Assembly: GCA_027051165.1 (NCBI GenBank)
Contig: JALTZZ010000034.1
Location: forward strand, 1 to 21,213
DNA: 21,213 nt
Direction: 5' to 3'
Origin: an archaeon
GTDB taxonomy: Archaea; Hydrothermarchaeota; Hydrothermarchaeia; JALTZZ01
The notes beneath the pieces are model-generated. The model did not search any database, had not been told where the DNA came from, and saw nothing but the letters and a program-made list of their open reading frames with translations. This document shows positions 4,117 through 21,213 of this stretch, one piece after another. The position numbers and the translations under genes were made by a program. Position 1 is the first letter of the stretch. Each line of letters starts with the position of its first letter.

Positions 4117-4132
4117 CCTCACAGCTGTGAGG
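4117..4132. promoter_or_regulatory. palindrome module copy a: CCTCACAGCTGTGAGG
   Basis: 16-nt perfect dyad; minus side AAATTGATTTATAAA box then ATG 4085; plus side GTTTCGAAAGGCTTAAGAAG arm upstream of the SPFH gene. Confidence 0.6.
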
Positions 4133-6430: not shown

Positions 6431-6445
6431 CTCACAGCTGTGAGG
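6431..6445. promoter_or_regulatory. palindrome module copy b
   Basis: CTCACAGCTGTGAGG followed by GAATTCCATTTTTAAGCTCTCTACT arm on the plus side. Confidence 0.55.
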
Positions 6446-6473
6446 AATTCCATTTTTAAGCTCTCTACTGTTC

Positions 6474-6924: not shown

Positions 6925-7431
6925 ATGAAGGAGTATAAGCACTATAAAAGATTGGAGAAGTGGCTTGCATCTAAAGGATTCAGCATTTTTGAGAAGATTA
7001 GGTATGGAAAGCATGAATTCGATATAGTTGGAATAAATGATATTAAAACTATCAATGTAGAGGTAAAAGAGGTGTTTTTTCAAAGATTGATAGATCAGGC
7101 GAAGAAGAGGCTGGAGCTGAAGATTTTCGATTATGTGTATATTGCTTATCCTTTCAGGAAGAAGCCCAAGGTTGATTGGCTCGCTGAATACGGCATAGGT
7201 GTTATTGATTTATCTAATAACGAGATTGTTTTATCGGCTAAGAGGCTTGAGACCGACTTTAGAGAAAAGGAGAAGTTTATCAATTATTTGTTGAGAAAGA
7301 ATTTTGAAATATCTATTGAGCATGATGACTATTATTTTCTGAAAAGAAGATTGAAGAAAGAGGGGTTTAAGAGCGTTGAAGATTTTCTGATAAAATATGC
7401 TCGGTATGAGCTTGAGGTTTATAAACGCTGA
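6925..7431 (+). CDS. PD-(D/E)xK (restriction-endonuclease/Hjc-NucS-like fold) nuclease-like protein
   Basis: 168 aa; E..L...G...hhFDIVG (D) ... NVEVKE (ExK) motif order; leaderless-type promoter (palindrome 6881, TTTTAAAAAT box, ATG at 6925). Confidence 0.6.
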   Translation: MKEYKHYKRLEKWLASKGFSIFEKIRYGKHEFDIVGINDIKTINVEVKEVFFQRLIDQAKKRLELKIFDYVYIAYPFRKKPKVDWLAEYGIGVIDLSNNEIVLSAKRLETDFREKEKFINYLLRKNFEISIEHDDYYFLKRRLKKEGFKSVEDFLIKYARYELEVYKR

Positions 7432-7450
7432 TTCTCACAGCTGTGAGAAT
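7431..7450. promoter_or_regulatory. palindrome module copy d: ATTCTCACAGCTGTGAGAAT (20-nt perfect, variant outer arms)
   Basis: Begins at the stop codon of 6925..7431; acts as its terminator hairpin; pairs with copy e across a 72-nt iteron-bearing spacer. Confidence 0.6.
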
Positions 7451-7522
7451 TATCAATTAGTTGGCAATTCGTTGGCAATGACAACAAATAGCATTCTCAA
7501 TTAATTATCAATTAGTTGACAA
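7448..7522. repeat. iteron-like direct repeats between palindromes d and e
   Basis: AATTATCAATTAGTTGGCAA (7448-7467) repeated as AATTATCAATTAGTTGACAA (7503-7522); additional TTGGCAAT at 7472. Confidence 0.7.
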
Positions 7523-7540
7523 CCCTCACAGCTGTGAAGG
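7523..7540. promoter_or_regulatory. palindrome module copy e (one mismatch: CCCTCACAGCTGTGAAGG)
   Basis: Seen directly; 72 nt from copy d. Confidence 0.5.
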
Positions 7541-7544
7541 TAAG

Positions 7545-7650
7545 CTTATACATTTTTAAGCTTATACATTTTAATGTATAATTCTTTAAAAAAGCTTATA
7601 CAGCTGAATGTATAATCTTTTTTAAATGATTATCCAGCAGAATGTATAAA
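7545..7650. repeat. nested dyad array of TTATACA / TGTATAA half-sites
   Basis: Half-site 7545-7554; full palindromes TTATACATTTTAATGTATAA (7563-7582) and TTATACAGCTGAATGTATAA (7597-7616); half-site 7641-7650; overall symmetric around ~7595; followed by TGTAACTTAGTTACA palindrome 7666-7680. Confidence 0.65.
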
Positions 7651-8177: not shown

Positions 8178-8192
8178 CTCACAGCTGTGAGG
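8178..8192. promoter_or_regulatory. palindrome module copy g, bidirectional promoter
   Basis: Plus side GAATTCGATTTTTAAGCTTTAAGGTTGCTGGTGGTGGGT then ATG 8231; minus side GTTCGAAAATCTTAAGAG then ATG 8135. Confidence 0.65.
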
Positions 8193-8230
8193 AATTCGAT
8201 TTTTAAGCTTTAAGGTTGCTGGTGGTGGGT

Positions 8231-8563
8231 ATGTATGTTGATAAGGAGAAGCAACTTCAGGGCTTAATTAAAAGCTACATGGTGTATGCTCAGAACTTGG
8301 GGATTTCGGAGAGGGAACTTTTGGATATGATATACTATGCGGCGAGAACGAGAGGGGATCAGTATAAGTGCCTGAACTGCGTTTACTCAAGGGCGCACAA
8401 AAGCATAAACGAGAAGAAAGTTGAAAAAGAGGGAAGGATAAGCATATACGCAAGGCAGTGCGTTTTCGGGATTTTCTACAGAGAGGACTGCCCGGTTCAG
8501 GTTCCCATAATCGAGAGGAAAAATGATGAGGCTTCTCTACGAGCTGAACAGGAAAGCGAGTGA
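8231..8563 (+). CDS. cassette gene A (copy 1): 110-aa Cys-containing protein (KCLNC ... QC ... DC), unknown
   Basis: ATG at 8231 (track start 8216 is TTG) 30 nt after GATTTTTAAGC box and preceded by GGTGGTGGGT; 80-90 % identical paralog at 20097..20414. Confidence 0.6.
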   Translation: MYVDKEKQLQGLIKSYMVYAQNLGISERELLDMIYYAARTRGDQYKCLNCVYSRAHKSINEKKVEKEGRISIYARQCVFGIFYREDCPVQVPIIERKNDEASLRAEQESE

Positions 8564-11350: not shown

Positions 11351-11370
11351 TTCCTCACAGCTGTGAGGAA
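11351..11370. promoter_or_regulatory. palindrome module copy j: TTCCTCACAGCTGTGAGGAA (20-nt perfect), bidirectional promoter
   Basis: Plus side TTGATTTTTTAAG then ATG 11398; minus side CAAGCTTATAAGCTC then ATG 11323. Confidence 0.65.
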
Positions 11371-11397: not shown

Positions 11398-12096
11398 ATG
11401 ATAGAGATAGAAGCCGCCGCCGACGATGAAAAAATTCGCGGGAGAGTTCATCTGCACATAGACAGAAGAGTGAAAAGCAGAGGGATCTATGTTAGACTTT
11501 TCGGAGCAGAAGAAGTTAGAATTGTCGATCGTGTTGATAAAAAACTTAGAAAAGCAAAAAACATAATAATAGATGAAATAAGGAAGATTAAAGATAAAGG
11601 AGAGCTCTTCGGCAGCTATACTTTAAGCTTTGAATTCAAACTTCCGGAGAATCGTCTGCCAACATACAGAGGGGTTTACGTGAATATATTTTACAAAGTG
11701 GCTACATGGATTGATATACCGTTCAGATTCGATATTAAAGCAGAAAAAGAAATTGAAATTTTGCCTAAGTGCAGCATGCCGTATAAATTACGGAAATCCT
11801 TCTTAAATAAGGCTGTATTTAGGAGAGGGGAAATTATAAGAGGGAGAATTGAAGGTAGAAGCAGGGTAAAGCTCGTTTGTGTTGAGAGTGCGGACACGAA
11901 GCATGTCAGCGCTAAAATAGCAGTTTACGAAAAAGAGGTTGACGTGCTTTCCGGAGGTTTTTCGATAAAGATACCGAATGATGCTCCCTTCAGCTATGCC
12001 GGGAAGCTTTCCTCTGTTGCGTGGTATCTTGTTGTCGGTGGTGAGCACATACCGATAGCCGTTCTTCCTCACAGCTGTGAGGAATTGATTTTTTAA
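11398..12096 (+). CDS. hypothetical 232-aa protein (beta-rich, arrestin/Spo0M-like impression only)
   Basis: ORF begins 28 nt after GATTTTTTAAG box of palindrome 11351; ends inside palindrome 12065 (PHSCEE encoded by the repeat). Confidence 0.55.
   Translation: MIEIEAAADDEKIRGRVHLHIDRRVKSRGIYVRLFGAEEVRIVDRVDKKLRKAKNIIIDEIRKIKDKGELFGSYTLSFEFKLPENRLPTYRGVYVNIFYKVATWIDIPFRFDIKAEKEIEILPKCSMPYKLRKSFLNKAVFRRGEIIRGRIEGRSRVKLVCVESADTKHVSAKIAVYEKEVDVLSGGFSIKIPNDAPFSYAGKLSSVAWYLVVGGEHIPIAVLPHSCEELIF
12065..12084. promoter_or_regulatory. palindrome module copy k (20-nt perfect)
   Basis: Overlaps the last codons of 11398..12096; plus side TTGATTTTTTAAGCTCTTTATTTGTTGGTGGTGCGGA then ATG 12122. Confidence 0.65.
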
Positions 12097-12121: not shown

Positions 12122-12439
12122 ATGGCGGGGGTTATTATTTTTGTAGATAGGATTGCGCTTTTAGTAAGTTTTGTTAAAAACGAGATAAAAAGCATCAGCA
12201 AAAACGAAACGGAAGCCGTTTTCAACGTTCTAAGCGTGGTTCATGAACTGCTGAGAGATGTAGAAGTGAAGGACGATGAACTGAAGAAAAAGCTGAGAGC
12301 TGTAAAAGATATAACGAGGGCTGAGATAGAGAGCATAGAGAAAAATCCGTTCTCAAAGGCGCTGGCGACAATTTACATTACAAAGGAGCTTTTGGAAGAT
12401 TTCCACAGCGAGGCAGAGCTTCTCGTAAAGCAGAGGTGA
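12122..12439 (+). CDS. hypothetical 105-aa protein, first gene of a coupled operon
   Basis: Starts in the conserved module tail GGTGGTGCGGAATGGCGGGG; stop overlaps the next start (GTGA). Confidence 0.5.
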   Translation: MAGVIIFVDRIALLVSFVKNEIKSISKNETEAVFNVLSVVHELLRDVEVKDDELKKKLRAVKDITRAEIESIEKNPFSKALATIYITKELLEDFHSEAELLVKQR

Positions 12440-14132: not shown

Positions 14133-15143
14133 ATGATAACTGTGCTTGAATTGGAGAATTTTAGGGGAGTAAAAAAAGGCAGGATAGAATTAGCTCCGCT
14201 TACAATTCTCCTCGGTGGAAACAACTCCGGAAAAACAACAATCCTTGAAGCACTTTTCTTAGCTCCAAATCCCTTCCGTGGAGTTCCTTATTCTTTAAAA
14301 CCTTATAATGCAGCAGTAGCAGTCCTTCGTTATCTTCATGAAACTTTGGACAGCAAAGGTTATGCCTTCTTACTTTACAATTATATTTTAAACTCTGCTA
14401 AAATATCTTGCAGAGCTGATAATATGCATTACAGTCTCGTTTTTTCGAAGGAACAACCTTCACAAGACCTCATTTCAGTAATTTTAACCAAGCAAGATTC
14501 TTCTTGGACTGTAGGAAGATTATCAACTGTACATGATAATATCACTCCAATAAGTTCAGAATTGTATATGAAGAATACTCTTCTTATTTCCTCAAAACTC
14601 AGAGATTATGGATACCGATATATTGAGGAGAACTGGGCAGCCATTATAAACCTCGGAATATGCAGAAAAGTTGCAAAGGAAACTTCTGAGCTTGTTTCTG
14701 AAAATTATATAGATATAACCATGGAGCCTTTCCTTGGAGGACAACTTGCTATCTATGCATTTTTGGAGGACGGAAGGAGGATAAGGCTGGGAGATCTCGG
14801 TGAGGGTGTTCAGAACTACATACTTGCGAGAGTACTCTACGAAGTGGCAAAGCCAGAGACCCTTCTGTGGGATGACGTTGAGGCGCACTTTAATCCAAGG
14901 ATGCTCTTAAGAATTGCGGAATGGTTCTCCGAACTTATAGAGAAAAATAAACAGGTTATAGTTTCCACGCACAGCTTAGAAGCGGCTAAAATAATTGCTG
15001 GCATGGCTGAAGAAAAGGCAAGAATATACCTCACATCTTTAAAAGACGGTGAGCTTAAAGCTAAAAGCCTCACTCTTAAAGAAGTTGAAGAGCTACAGGA
15101 AGCCGGGATTGATGTAAGAGTTGCGGAGCCGATGCTGCTATGA
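14133..15143 (+). CDS. ABC-type / AAA_21-OLD-like ATPase (defence-associated ATPase family)
   Basis: 336 aa; N-terminal LENFRG...LTILLGGNNSGKTTILEAL Walker A; C-terminal LLWDDVEAHFNP (Walker B-like DD) and QVIVSTHSLE (H-loop); 117-nt AT-rich promoter region upstream; ATGA-coupled to the next gene. Confidence 0.8.
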   Translation: MITVLELENFRGVKKGRIELAPLTILLGGNNSGKTTILEALFLAPNPFRGVPYSLKPYNAAVAVLRYLHETLDSKGYAFLLYNYILNSAKISCRADNMHYSLVFSKEQPSQDLISVILTKQDSSWTVGRLSTVHDNITPISSELYMKNTLLISSKLRDYGYRYIEENWAAIINLGICRKVAKETSELVSENYIDITMEPFLGGQLAIYAFLEDGRRIRLGDLGEGVQNYILARVLYEVAKPETLLWDDVEAHFNPRMLLRIAEWFSELIEKNKQVIVSTHSLEAAKIIAGMAEEKARIYLTSLKDGELKAKSLTLKEVEELQEAGIDVRVAEPMLL

Positions 15144-15829
15144 GGCTGTATCCGCTTGATCAAACAAGTGGAACAGCAGGAAATCTACGTGAAATATCAA
15201 AAGAATTGAAAATAAAAATATTAACATTTTATGTTAGAGAAAGAATTACATCCCTAATAGTTTTAGCGGATGGTCGGCACGACGATATTGCAGTAGCCTT
15301 AATTGCACATCATCAAAACGGTAGATATACTGTCGGTATAGTTAAGCCAAAAGGTAAAACAAGATATGCGTGTATAGAAATTCTACCTTCGTATGTCAAA
15401 ATAGGTAATATTAGGAAAATAGCGTTCTTTATAGATCAAGAAGATGAGAGTTTGGAAAGTGTCTATCGAACAGCCGAGAACAAGCTAAGAAAGACTGTAA
15501 ATGACTTTGAGGTCTTAGATGAGCGGGAAAGAGTAAAAATATACAGATGCAACTACGGTGGAAAGGAATTCGATTTTATATTTGTTGTCAACGGTCTTAA
15601 CGATATTCCAGCAAGAAAACACTGTATAGAAGATCATTTTATCCATGTTGCTATGAATATAAACCCTTCCATAAACATTAGCAGTGAAATAGACCCTAAA
15701 GTATTTTGGAAACGGCTTAATGAAGATATTAAGAAAGATGTTCTGAAGCAGCTGAAGGGAAACAGAAGGCTTTTGAGGGATAATTTTCCCCAGCAGGTAT
15801 ACGGATGCGAACTGCTTGAAAAAGATTAA
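15140..15829 (+). CDS. 229-aa partner of the ABC-like ATPase; acidic LIVLADGRHDD motif (possible divergent Toprim/nuclease-like, unverified)
   Basis: ATGA overlap with the ATPase stop; conserved-looking acidic patches SLIVLADGRHDDIAV and EFDFIFVVNGLND; ends 12 nt before palindrome 15841. Confidence 0.6.
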   Translation: MRLYPLDQTSGTAGNLREISKELKIKILTFYVRERITSLIVLADGRHDDIAVALIAHHQNGRYTVGIVKPKGKTRYACIEILPSYVKIGNIRKIAFFIDQEDESLESVYRTAENKLRKTVNDFEVLDERERVKIYRCNYGGKEFDFIFVVNGLNDIPARKHCIEDHFIHVAMNINPSINISSEIDPKVFWKRLNEDIKKDVLKQLKGNRRLLRDNFPQQVYGCELLEKD

Positions 15830-16572: not shown

Positions 16573-16592
16573 TTCCTCACAGCTGTGAGGAA
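16573..16592. promoter_or_regulatory. palindrome module copy m (20-nt perfect)
   Basis: Abuts the stop of 16593..17150 (-); minus side CAGTTTAAAAGCTGACAACAAGCC then ATG 16546. Confidence 0.65.
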
Positions 16593-17178: not shown

Positions 17179-17194
17179 CCTCACAGCTGTGAGG
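17179..17194. promoter_or_regulatory. palindrome module copy n, bidirectional promoter
   Basis: Plus side TTCAGCATTTTTAAGCTCTCTTATTTTTCGGTGTGAGGG then ATG 17234; minus side AATTAATTTAAAAGCTCCTAACAAGGC then ATG 17150. Confidence 0.65.
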
Positions 17195-17233
17195 TTCAGC
17201 ATTTTTAAGCTCTCTTATTTTTCGGTGTGAGGG

Positions 17234-19448: not shown

Positions 19449-19503
19449 GCTTACCACCTCCTTTAATTTTTTTCATAAATATTATCATAAAAATCAAAAA
19501 AGG

Positions 19504-19767
19504 CTAAAAGTTTCTTATTTTTACGGTATTTCCGTTGAAAATTGCTTTTATCTTCTTAAGCTCCTTCCTTTTTAAAATCTCCACCGCTCTTTCATCCCTG
19601 CAGATGCCGAGTATTGGTATTCTTGTATCCCTCATGAACTTAAGAAGTTCGAAAAGCTCTCTGACGTTCTCGCACTCAACCTCAACATACGGCTTTTCTT
19701 TCTTAACCTCCCTCCAGACCTCCCTTATCCTTAAAACATCTCCAATTCTGTAGCCGAAGACCCTCAA
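19504..19767 (-). CDS. hypothetical 87-aa protein (TTG start), first gene of a four-gene minus-strand operon
   Basis: GGAGGAGGGT Shine-Dalgarno-like run 5 nt before TTG 19767; no in-frame ATG until codon 45; preceded by a long GC-rich structured leader. Confidence 0.45.
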   Translation of the reverse strand: MRVFGYRIGDVLRIREVWREVKKEKPYVEVECENVRELFELLKFMRDTRIPILGICRDERAVEILKRKELKKIKAIFNGNTVKIRNF

Positions 19768-19780
19768 CGGCTACCCTCCT

Positions 19781-19856
19781 CCCCCAGCCCGCCGTTCAAC
19801 GAAGCCAATCCGAGGGAATCCTGTTGGGACTCCCCCGCCCTACTACGGGCTGGGGG
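19781..19856. other. GC-rich inverted repeat (11-bp perfect stem CCCCCAGCCCG / CGGGCTGGGGG enclosing 54 nt) in the leader of the 19767 operon
   Basis: Strongly GC-rich in an AT-rich intergenic context; adjacent to a GGAGGAGGGT Shine-Dalgarno; no tRNA cloverleaf could be built. Confidence 0.5.
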
Positions 19857-19958
19857 GAAAATTAGTCATCGCGGATGGCGGGGGAGTTTTGAACGCATGA
19901 CCGTAAACAGCTACTTTGATATAATCTGCAGCGAATACCGTTTAAAAATTTTTCGAAC

Positions 19959-19974
19959 CCTCACAGCTGTGAGG
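19959..19974. promoter_or_regulatory. palindrome module copy o
   Basis: Minus side GGTTCGAAAAATTTTTAAACGG box, then about 155-nt GC-rich leader, then TTG 19767. Confidence 0.55.
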
Positions 19975-20042
19975 AACTCAACTTCCCTAAGGTATCTACA
20001 ATGTTTTAATCATGAAAAAACTATTCATAAACTTTACTGCAT

Positions 20043-20058
20043 CTTCACAGCTGTGAGG
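20043..20058. promoter_or_regulatory. palindrome module copy p (CTTCACAGCTGTGAGG)
   Basis: Plus side GAATTCGGTTTTTAAATTCTAAGGTTTCTGGTGGTGTGT then ATG 20097 (paralogous to copy g arm). Confidence 0.6.
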
Positions 20059-20096
20059 AATTCGGTTTTTAAATTCTAAGGTTTCTGGTGGTGTGT

Positions 20097-20414
20097 ATGT
20101 ATGTTGATAAGGAGAAGCAGCTTCAGGGATTGATTAAAAGCTATATGGTGTATGCTCAGGGCTTGGGGATTTCGGAGAAGGAGATTTTAAATATGATATA
20201 CTTCGCCGCCCGTGAGAGGGGAGATAGATTCAAGTGCCTGAACTGCATATACAGCAGGGCTCACAAAAGCATAAACGAGAAGAAGGTTGAAAAAGAGGGA
20301 AGGATAAGCATATACGCAAGGCAGTGCGTATTCGGGATTTTCTACAGGGACGACTGCCCGGTTCAGGTGCCTATAATCGAGAGGAAGGATGAGAGGTCTT
20401 CTTCACAAGCTTAA
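20097..20414 (+). CDS. cassette gene A (copy 2)
   Basis: Paralog of 8231..8563 (about 85 % aa identity over the first 95 aa; C-terminal tails differ); ATG 20097 follows GGTGGTGTGT; track start 20088 is GTG. Confidence 0.6.
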   Translation: MYVDKEKQLQGLIKSYMVYAQGLGISEKEILNMIYFAARERGDRFKCLNCIYSRAHKSINEKKVEKEGRISIYARQCVFGIFYRDDCPVQVPIIERKDERSSSQA

Positions 20415-21153: not shown

Positions 21154-21170
21154 CCTTCACAGCTGTGAGG
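21154..21170. promoter_or_regulatory. palindrome module copy q, bidirectional
   Basis: Minus side ATAGAATTTAAAAGCTGTTATGCATGC then ATG 21126; plus side GTTTGTATTTTTAAGCTCTCTACTTATTGGTGGTGCGGATGG runs off the window end. Confidence 0.6.
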
Positions 21171-21213
21171 GTTTGTATTTTTAAGCTCTCTACTTATTGG
21201 TGGTGCGGATGGT

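Follow-up and report, generated by a model that had tools for sequence, protein, structure and literature searches.

A candidate structured 5′ leader in front of a small TTG-start gene on a mobile-element-like archaeal contig

Structured RNA elements that regulate gene expression in cis are very poorly documented in archaea, and in archaeal viruses and plasmids hardly at all. Here, we describe a candidate for such an element, a GC-rich leader with a predicted length of about 150 nucleotides (nt) that precedes ORF87, a small open reading frame (ORF) of 87 codons on the minus strand of the hydrothermarchaeal contig JALTZZ010000034.1; the window that we analyzed is this NCBI contig in its entirety (21,213 nt). 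On our best reading, the region belongs to the structured regulatory leaders and is without a relative in the curated RNA families. If functional, it would be a compact and portable translational control element for very high temperature, a genetic tool for Thermococcales-type hosts, and a way into the regulation of a family of vent-archaeal mobile elements that display a near-universal operator and several genes with shared first codons.

The closest described systems are the fourU RNA thermometers, such as that of Salmonella agsA, in which a hairpin of the 5′ untranslated region holds four uridines opposite the purines of the Shine-Dalgarno sequence (SD), next to a more stable helix (PMC6096418). 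The predicted leader of ORF87 could adopt the same layout, but its stable helix is an 11-base pair (bp) GC clamp suited to very high temperature, its predicted melting is gradual, its host is archaeal, and it has no sequence relation to the Rfam thermometer families. In archaea, RNA thermometers were not employed before a designed one (PMC11549558). A second resemblance is to the Rsa RNAs of Staphylococcus aureus, in which a C-rich single-stranded block, the UCCC motif, is complementary to the G-rich translation starts of several mRNAs (PMC2790875); among archaeal small RNAs (sRNAs), sRNA154 of Methanosarcina mazei is an example (PMC11549558). Unlike in the C-rich-seed sRNAs, the presumed targets of the C-rich block in the leader are the 5′ ends of probably leaderless mRNAs, and the seed lies within the leader of another gene. 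As in the general class of operator-controlled promoter modules of archaeal viruses and plasmids, the leader promoter shares its palindrome with about 16 other promoters of the contig; it differs in that the ORF87 module is the only one with a long leader and has its TATA box 2 nt further from the palindrome.

The use of GC bias to find structural RNAs in AT-rich hyperthermophiles is said to go back to Klein, Misulovin and Eddy in 2002, whose Hgc RNAs reportedly combine a sharp GC peak with a stable fold. The same combination is seen in non-coding RNAs of Pyrococcus abyssi (PMC3124441), and a GC-rich segment is regarded as a hallmark of structural RNA in thermophiles (PMC3124441, PMC8632094). 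The leader shares this combination but matches none of these RNAs; it is joined to an ORF, lies on a mobile-element-like contig and is known from three metagenomic loci only.

ORF87 (19504-19767, minus strand), which starts with a TTG codon at 19767-19765, matches no known family and has only three relatives among the billions of proteins searched; an exhaustive HMMER search added nothing usable. Our comparison covers the window, a 43.7-kb contig (L001, identical in sequence to L002) and a 2.4-kb scaffold (L003), and leaves outside a fourth ORF87 copy (P0011) on a 30,961-nt NCBI contig. In both homologous loci, the palindrome, the TATA box, the leader, GGAGGAGG and the TTG-start ORF87 follow one another as in the window, with the start codon and the SD retained; overall identity among the three sequences is 83-95%. 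Around the cassette, the DNA is unrelated: in the window, the neighbors are a divergent module upstream and a 116-amino acid (aa) gene downstream; in L001, a co-directional 282-aa gene and a 160-aa gene; and in L003, a tRNA-Arg(CCT) gene 190 nt upstream and an inserted MazE/PIN pair downstream. An in-frame TAG at 19773-19771, two codons upstream of the TTG, closes the reading frame on the 5′ side. Directly past the ORF87 stop codon lies an archaeal-terminator-like oligo-T tract, T6-GA-T5 in the window (19489-19501, minus strand) and C-T6/7-(G/T)A-T5 across all three loci, beyond which the downstream genes differ. Because this tract is constant and the genes behind it are not, the conserved unit appears to be a cassette of about 470 nt that looks monocistronic and consists, in order, of the operator palindrome, the TATA box, a leader of about 150 nt, GGAGG, the TTG-start ORF87 and the oligo-T tract, rather than the four-gene operon from 19767 to 17908 that a first-pass annotation of the window, made from the letters alone, had proposed. 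The more basic claim of that annotation, that the region is the 5′ leader of a minus-strand gene, is supported by the conservation of the leader together with promoter and ORF in three neighborhoods and by a fold bias toward the mRNA strand.

The promoter, too, is much as first proposed, with a palindrome, a TATA box near 19940 and a leader of some 155 nt. The operator-like palindrome CCTCACAGCTGTGAGG (19959-19974), one of about 17 copies in the window, occupies the same place in L001 and L003 and is followed on the minus strand by a sequence, CGAAAA (19950-19955), that resembles the transcription factor B recognition element, and by the predicted TATA box TTTTTAAA (19949 to 19942), the position of which is kept in all three loci. 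The distance from the TATA start to the palindrome center is 17.5 nt here and 15.5 nt in canonical modules. Archaeal TATA boxes are centered near position -26/-27, and with this spacing transcription would start at 19917-19920, within the invariant UAUAUCA, giving a predicted leader of about 150-153 nt. Across about 25 other modules of the window and related contigs, the start codon lies only 21-33 nt past the TATA start, compared to 182 nt for ORF87; given canonical archaeal spacing, the other modules therefore probably have very short leaders or none.

The GC peak of the contig coincides with the predicted fold. GC content is 0.68 in 19781-19856 and 0.65 in 19775-19886, against a contig mean of 0.39, and the five 100-nt segments with the highest GC content in the contig all fall within 19741-19880 (maximum 0.66), so the earlier estimate of about 70% GC in AT-rich surroundings is close to the measured values. 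The 11-bp perfect stem that had been reported, CCCCCAGCCCG/CGGGCTGGGGG, is likewise present as an inverted repeat on the plus strand (cccccagcccg at 19781-19791, cgggctggggg at 19846-19856). When 19760-19960 was shuffled by mononucleotides 1000 times, two of the shuffles contained a perfect stem of 11 bp or more; when only the GC-rich core was shuffled 1000 times, one did. Folding of the entire 201-nt region 19760-19960, the check suggested in the first-pass annotation, distinguished it from shuffled sequences only marginally (z = -1.79 for the minus and -0.19 for the plus strand). The 83-nt core, by contrast, clearly beats its shuffles on the minus (mRNA) strand, with z-scores of -3.84 in the window, -3.89 in L001 and -3.87 in L003, compared to -2.74, -3.15 and -2.97 on the opposite strand; in each locus, the mRNA-strand fold of the core is the more stable one by 8-12 kcal/mol. 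The coincidence of the GC peak with a stable fold in AT-rich thermophile sequence suggests a structural RNA signature.

The core consists of two nested helices. P1, the outer clamp, comprises 11 bp plus one U·G pair and is formed by the 5′ arm CCCCCAGCCCG (19846-19856) and the 3′ arm CGGGCUGGGGG (19781-19791), the latter a part of the G2 block, recognized both in the fold and as an inverted repeat. Inside P1, a 5-nt joint, UAGUA (19841-19845), leads to the G1 block GGGCGGGGGAG (19830-19840), a direct repeat of G2; P2, an inner hairpin of 10 bp including two G·U pairs (GGGGGAGUCC-CAACA-GGAUUCCCUC, 19812-19836), is separated from the 3′ arm of P1 by a joint of 20 nt. Because of its two G·U pairs, P2 can form on the minus strand only. 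Predicted folds at 85-95 °C retain nothing but P1 and P2 in the window and L001, and nothing but a short P1 in L003. Upstream of P1, the AT-richer 5′ part of the leader (19862-19916) has no stable predicted structure at or above 85 °C and is nonetheless highly conserved, with 55 of 58 positions identical between the window and L001. Within this part lies a C-rich block, C1 (CUCCCCCGCCAUCC, 19873-19886), and immediately before P1 comes a U4C tract (19857-19861) embedded in the invariant block ACUAAUUUUCCC.

The pattern of substitution fits a constrained RNA. Between the window and L001, the leader is 94% identical, compared to 79% for the third codon positions of ORF87 (Fisher p = 0.001) and 65% for the adjacent spacer from the TATA box to the transcription start (p = 0.0007). 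The window and L001 differ four times within the 76-nt domain, each time in a predicted loop (chance 0.04), and both differences inside P2 are in its apical loop. L003 lacks exactly 50 nt of the interior (19787-19836 in window coordinates, with a placement that is ambiguous by 4 nt on account of the flanking direct repeat GGGC(G/U)GGGGGAG) and yet keeps a 10-bp P1, CCUCCAGUCC-GUAAUA-GGGCUGGGGG, in which the 5′ arm CCUCCAGUCC carries two C-to-U changes; on the mRNA strand these still pair, as G·U, whereas the opposite strand would have A·C mismatches in their place.

At its base, P1 abuts the ribosome-binding site. The 3′ arm CGGGCUGGGGG runs directly into AGGAGGG (19780-19774, minus strand), as had been pointed out before, and the SD, kept in all three loci with its GGAGG core at 19779-19775, begins one base past the helix. 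The partner of the SD appears to be not the C-rich 5′ arm, as originally proposed, but the invariant U4C tract: UUUUC (19861-19857) can pair with GGAGG (19779-19775) through U·G, U·G, U-A, U·G and C-G, identically in all three loci, thereby lengthening P1 with A19780 bulged. Four consecutive uridines (U19861-U19858, followed by C19857) are thus predicted to face the SD inside a hairpin in each locus, and the minimum free energy structures at 37 °C contain this extension, which makes it a better-supported form of the proposed gating than pairing with the C-run. For the SD core, the calculated openness is 0.20-0.36 at 30-45 °C and increases smoothly to 0.51-0.64 at 85-95 °C.

From these features, we tentatively favor, with somewhat less than an even chance of being right, a cis-acting structured 5′ leader of ORF87 in which a GC-clamped hairpin, together with its U4C extension, would influence how accessible the SD is. 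Transcription from the TATA promoter next to the palindrome would give a leader of about 150 nt; its GC-rich part would fold on the mRNA as a very stable clamp, P1, around a dispensable P2; and the UUUUC tract would lengthen the base of P1 across GGAGG, so that the ribosome-binding site is occluded or exposed according to structure and translation is controlled in cis. Temperature or a bound factor could modulate this exposure, and mRNA stability might be affected as well. As the base of P1 lies one nucleotide from the SD and can be extended by UUUUC, action in cis on ORF87 translation is the most likely mode.

Several points weigh against this reading. The excess of conservation is significant for the window/L001 pair alone and not for the pairs that include L003, and among the three independent sequences not a single base pair shows compensatory change on both sides; RNAalifold was uninformative for P1, as the MAFFT alignment misplaced the L003 gap. 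Slippage between the G1 and G2 repeats would also preserve P1 in L003 without selection. On the functional side, the SD is predicted to open gradually between 30 and 95 °C, with no cooperative switch, and the pairing probability of the U-tract with the SD is at most 0.22 at 85 °C and reaches about 0.6 at most overall, in calculations for which the energy parameters are extrapolated to these temperatures. Of the thermosensor-like gating proposed in the first-pass annotation, the architecture is supported, with P1 abutting the SD and U4C predicted to be able to cover it; because predicted opening is smooth and the U-tract:SD probability is low, thermosensing is a possible reading only.

An unlikely explanation, but one to be taken seriously, is that the region is an evolutionary relic without regulatory function, that is, debris of promoter-module recombination composed of an inverted module tail (C1) and a local duplication (G1/G2), GC-rich only through the GC-rich ATGGCGGGGGAG motif and conserved in appearance through recent divergence or horizontal exchange. 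The composition of the leader is what such an origin would leave, since C1 is the reverse complement of a module tail and G1 and G2 are near-identical direct repeats; the 50-nt deletion between these repeats is tolerated in L003, and the overall identity of 83-95%, the excess over the third-codon level in one pair only and the lack of covariation are as expected of recently separated copies. This explanation fits less well with a leader that remains intact with its promoter and ORF in three contexts with unrelated flanks, with substitutions that avoid stems, with G·U pairs that bias the fold to one strand, and with an adjacent TATA-to-start spacer that has diverged to 65% identity beside a leader still at 94%. 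A useless GC-rich hairpin in a 150-nt leader before the SD might also be expected to be lost from compact elements. If the relic alone were real, the region would still be a record of promoter-module recombination in these elements.

C1 has a second possible significance. The first-pass annotation had noticed an orphan module tail on the other strand, and ATGGCGGGGGAG is indeed found there, at 19875-19886 on the plus strand, where it is complementary to C1. Unrelated module-driven genes begin with the same motif, (G)GATGGCGGGG(G), in the window (12122 and 17234), in L001 (3668, 6452, 7464 and 10045) and in L029, a related contig (9227 and 11775). The shared first codons, ATGGCGGGG(G) (M-A-G-), are located 31-33 nt past the TATA start, perhaps also at window position 21208; because unrelated genes share first codons at a fixed distance from the TATA box, the promoter module seems to extend into the beginning of the coding sequence, and the respective mRNAs are probably leaderless. 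C1 is antisense to this shared gene start (ATGGCGGGGG, GGAUGGCGGGGG), with 10-13 nt of contiguous complementarity; G1 is a sense-like copy of it. Among 8470 segments of the contig scored with RNAduplex at 80 °C against the 5′ part of the leader (mean -2.3 kcal/mol, s.d. 1.9), the starts of the genes at 12122 (-15.0 kcal/mol) and 17234 (-13.0 kcal/mol) rank first and second, and five of the six best matches in L001 are module-driven gene starts (3668, 6452, 13039, 10045 and 7464). Within the leader, C1 and G1 can form a perfect 10-bp helix of -5.6 kcal/mol at 85 °C, in competition with P2 (-3.4 kcal/mol); because this pairing crosses P1, it would be a pseudoknot. Two readings of C1 fit these data: it may work as an antisense seed that is masked internally, or it may be left over from an inverted module tail.

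The corresponding antisense model, which we judge distinctly unlikely, posits a 5′ transcript of about 60 nt, perhaps ending at the UUUU before P1, that pairs through C1 (CUCCCCCGCCAUCC) with the 5′ ends (GGAUGGCGGGGG) of several mRNAs of that element, themselves probably leaderless, and blocks their translation, the seed being masked by G1. It draws on the top-ranked duplexes in both the window and L001, the energetic advantage of C1:G1 over P2, the spacing that would place the target motif at the mRNA 5′ end, and the C1 core CCCCGCCAUCC, which is invariant in the three loci although insertions and deletions flank C1. Descent from an inverted copy of the promoter-module tail explains the complementarity equally well, however; the target motif is itself repeated, so that the multiple matches are not independent; the oligo-U run UUUU might stop transcription, but only as a weak archaeal terminator; and beyond the shared core, no co-variation of seed and target is found across elements.

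The two functions could also be combined, with fourU-like thermosensing of ORF87 joined to silencing of leaderless mRNA 5′ ends (AUGGCGGGGG) by the C1 seed and with alternation between P2 and the C1:G1 pseudoknot as the switch. This combination brings together four uridines opposite the SD and extended complementarity to translation starts in one molecule, and we consider it very unlikely. If it is true, a mobile element of a hyperthermophilic archaeon would encode the first RNA thermometer found naturally in archaea, or the first sRNA directed against leaderless mRNAs; natural examples of either in archaeal mobile elements would be new.

A highly improbable alternative places the function in the DNA. 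In one version, a DNA-binding regulator that occupies the ATGGCGGGGG gene starts would also bind here, at GGC(G/T)GGGGGAG, which is present twice on one strand and once on the other; in another, the hairpin of L003, with 10-bp arms and a 6-bp spacer (CCTCCAGTCC-GTAATA-GGGCTGGGGG), would be a recombinase core. The motif does recur at gene starts, and its three copies here include both orientations; the arm-spacer-arm geometry of L003 resembles that of tyrosine recombinase cores; and a tRNA-Arg gene, the sort of locus at which elements typically integrate, is 190 nt away from the L003 cassette. Nevertheless, P2 and the L003 version of P1 are imperfect as DNA inverted repeats because both rely on G·U pairing, and one strand folds more strongly than the other; the region matches no part of a tRNA, no integrase was recognized in the window, and position and orientation relative to ORF87 are constant.

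That the P1-P2 core (about 76-80 nt, GC-rich, tRNA-sized, -48.7 kcal/mol at 37 °C, z = -3.84) is an independent stable sRNA gene that merely lies upstream of ORF87 is extremely improbable, as Rfam yields nothing at the gathering threshold and only junk at E < 10, no tRNA is detected, 19862-19916 contains no promoter of its own, no oligo-T separates P1 from the SD, and L003 has lost two thirds of the core while keeping the cassette.

Covariance models of Rfam 15 found no match at the gathering threshold in the entire window, and at E < 10 the segment 19650-20100 gave only sub-threshold, hairpin-driven matches to miRNA and snoRNA families. The earlier statements that the region does not fold as a tRNA and lacks good C/D boxes agree with our results: ARAGORN detected no tRNA in the window, the region is not similar to the tRNA-Arg beside the L003 cassette, which also removes a tRNA-derived attachment site from consideration, and the sole GAUGA-like motif (19867-19871), within CGAUGAC, is not kept in L001 and L003, so neither a C/D box nor a K-turn is conserved there. 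A permuted tRNA, suggested by the CUCCCCCGCCA end, lacks a T-arm, and an AAA insertion/deletion removes the putative T-loop. For an H/ACA guide sRNA, P1 is followed by AGGAGG instead of ANA, the P2 loop reads CAACA, and Rfam offers no match. The 50-nt segment is no bulge-helix-bulge intron, as both of its junctions are G-rich direct repeats (GGGC·GGGGGAG) that cannot pair to give the required 4-bp helix with 3-nt bulges. A type III toxin-antitoxin RNA of the ToxI kind would contain a tandem array of about 36-nt units, and there are no tandem repeats here, only the 11-nt G1/G2 direct repeat 50 nt apart.

Other local features were likewise rejected. An ATG at 19898 opens 10-16 codons, but as a leader peptide this frame is broken by a 1-nt insertion/deletion in L003. 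A candidate stem of the 5′ leader, GUCAUGCG/CGCGAUGAC, is disrupted in L001 and L003 by uncompensated changes, and a hairpin around the TTG start codon (GUAGCC/GGCUAC) is present in the window only and absent from both other loci. A bacterial-type intrinsic terminator does not fit either, the U-run being located before the hairpin and not after it.

The leader is absent from the additional contigs L025, L028 and L029; DNA-pattern scans (four patterns in viral_contigs and one each in genome_contigs and metagenome_contigs) returned chance matches only, none of which carries the leader according to BLAST, and megablast with the window and blastn with the region gave no match in phage and plasmid collections, nor did tblastn with the 746-aa protein against phages. 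Both L028 and L029, which are 99.99% and 96% identical to the window at this point, end at window position 19559, inside ORF87; this shared scaffold end suggests a branch in the assembly graph, because the ORF87/leader cassette is common to several co-occurring elements. A partial copy of the leader promoter region without the TATA box is found in L029 (11368 to 11310, minus strand), beside an origin-like repeat array.

With respect to the wider element, protein searches with ORF87, the 116-aa neighbor and a 185-aa winged helix-turn-helix (wHTH) protein recovered two to four relatives each, and a PHROGs search of the window added nothing. The few recognizable genes of the window encode an M78 peptidase, an SPFH protein, a PAPS-reductase-like protein, an arrestin-like protein and an AAA_15/21 ATPase. 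The related contigs derive from metagenomes of the hydrothermal-vent type (REYS20-1 scaffolds, GCA_054046405.1 and SRR33956869), and because the tRNA-Arg beside the L003 cassette has stems that are almost entirely G-C, we infer a thermophilic archaeal host. The cassette would thus belong to an archaeal mobile element or variable island, of an uncharacterized kind, from thermophilic vent communities.

The palindrome CTCACAGCTGTGAGG recurs in about 17 copies, which occupy nearly all intergenic regions, next to archaeal-type TATA boxes, often with one on either side, as in bidirectional promoters; 33 strand-matches were counted in the window against 0.04 expected. Sites include 4118-4131, 6431-6447, 8178-8194, 11354-11370, 12068-12084, 16576-16592, 17180-17196, 19960-19976, 20044-20060 and 21156-21172, and the same operator occurs throughout the related contigs L026 and L029, which points to a single element-wide repressor or activator regulon. 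A 300-nt direct repeat of 87% identity (8179-8478 and 20045-20344) consists of a promoter module together with the 5′ part of two paralogous small genes (ORFs 8216-8563 and 20088-20414). The repeat cluster at 7422-7650, with a 59-nt inverted repeat around two palindromes, direct repeats of the AATTATCAATTAGTTGGCAA type and inverted repeats AAGCTTATACA/TGTATAA, looks like a replication origin or regulatory hub, and in L029 an origin-like array of TTATAAGCTGGTTATAA-type repeats lies between operator palindromes (11440-11740).

In L003 (184-448), the cassette is situated 190 nt downstream of the tRNA-Arg(CCT) gene and of the 3′ end of what we take, by eye from the translated C-terminus, to be a Trm1-like host gene. 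A tandem repeat in the spacer (TCGTTGGTAAC, two copies) resembles the TAGTTGGCAAT/TCGTTGGCAAT repeats of the window (7459-7478), and the site is possibly an integration junction of the element. At 14133-15829, the window has a gene for an AAA_15/AAA_21 (AbiEii/OLD-like) ATPase and, after it, one for a protein of 229 aa, and the corresponding place in L001 (10480-12708) encodes a 742-aa SMC_N/AAA_15 protein; together with the MazE/PIN pair of L003, these look like defense or addiction cargo in variable slots. Finally, a 232-aa protein encoded at 11398-12096 matches arrestin-N/Vps26-like domains (E = 4e-13), which is unusual for a prokaryotic mobile element.

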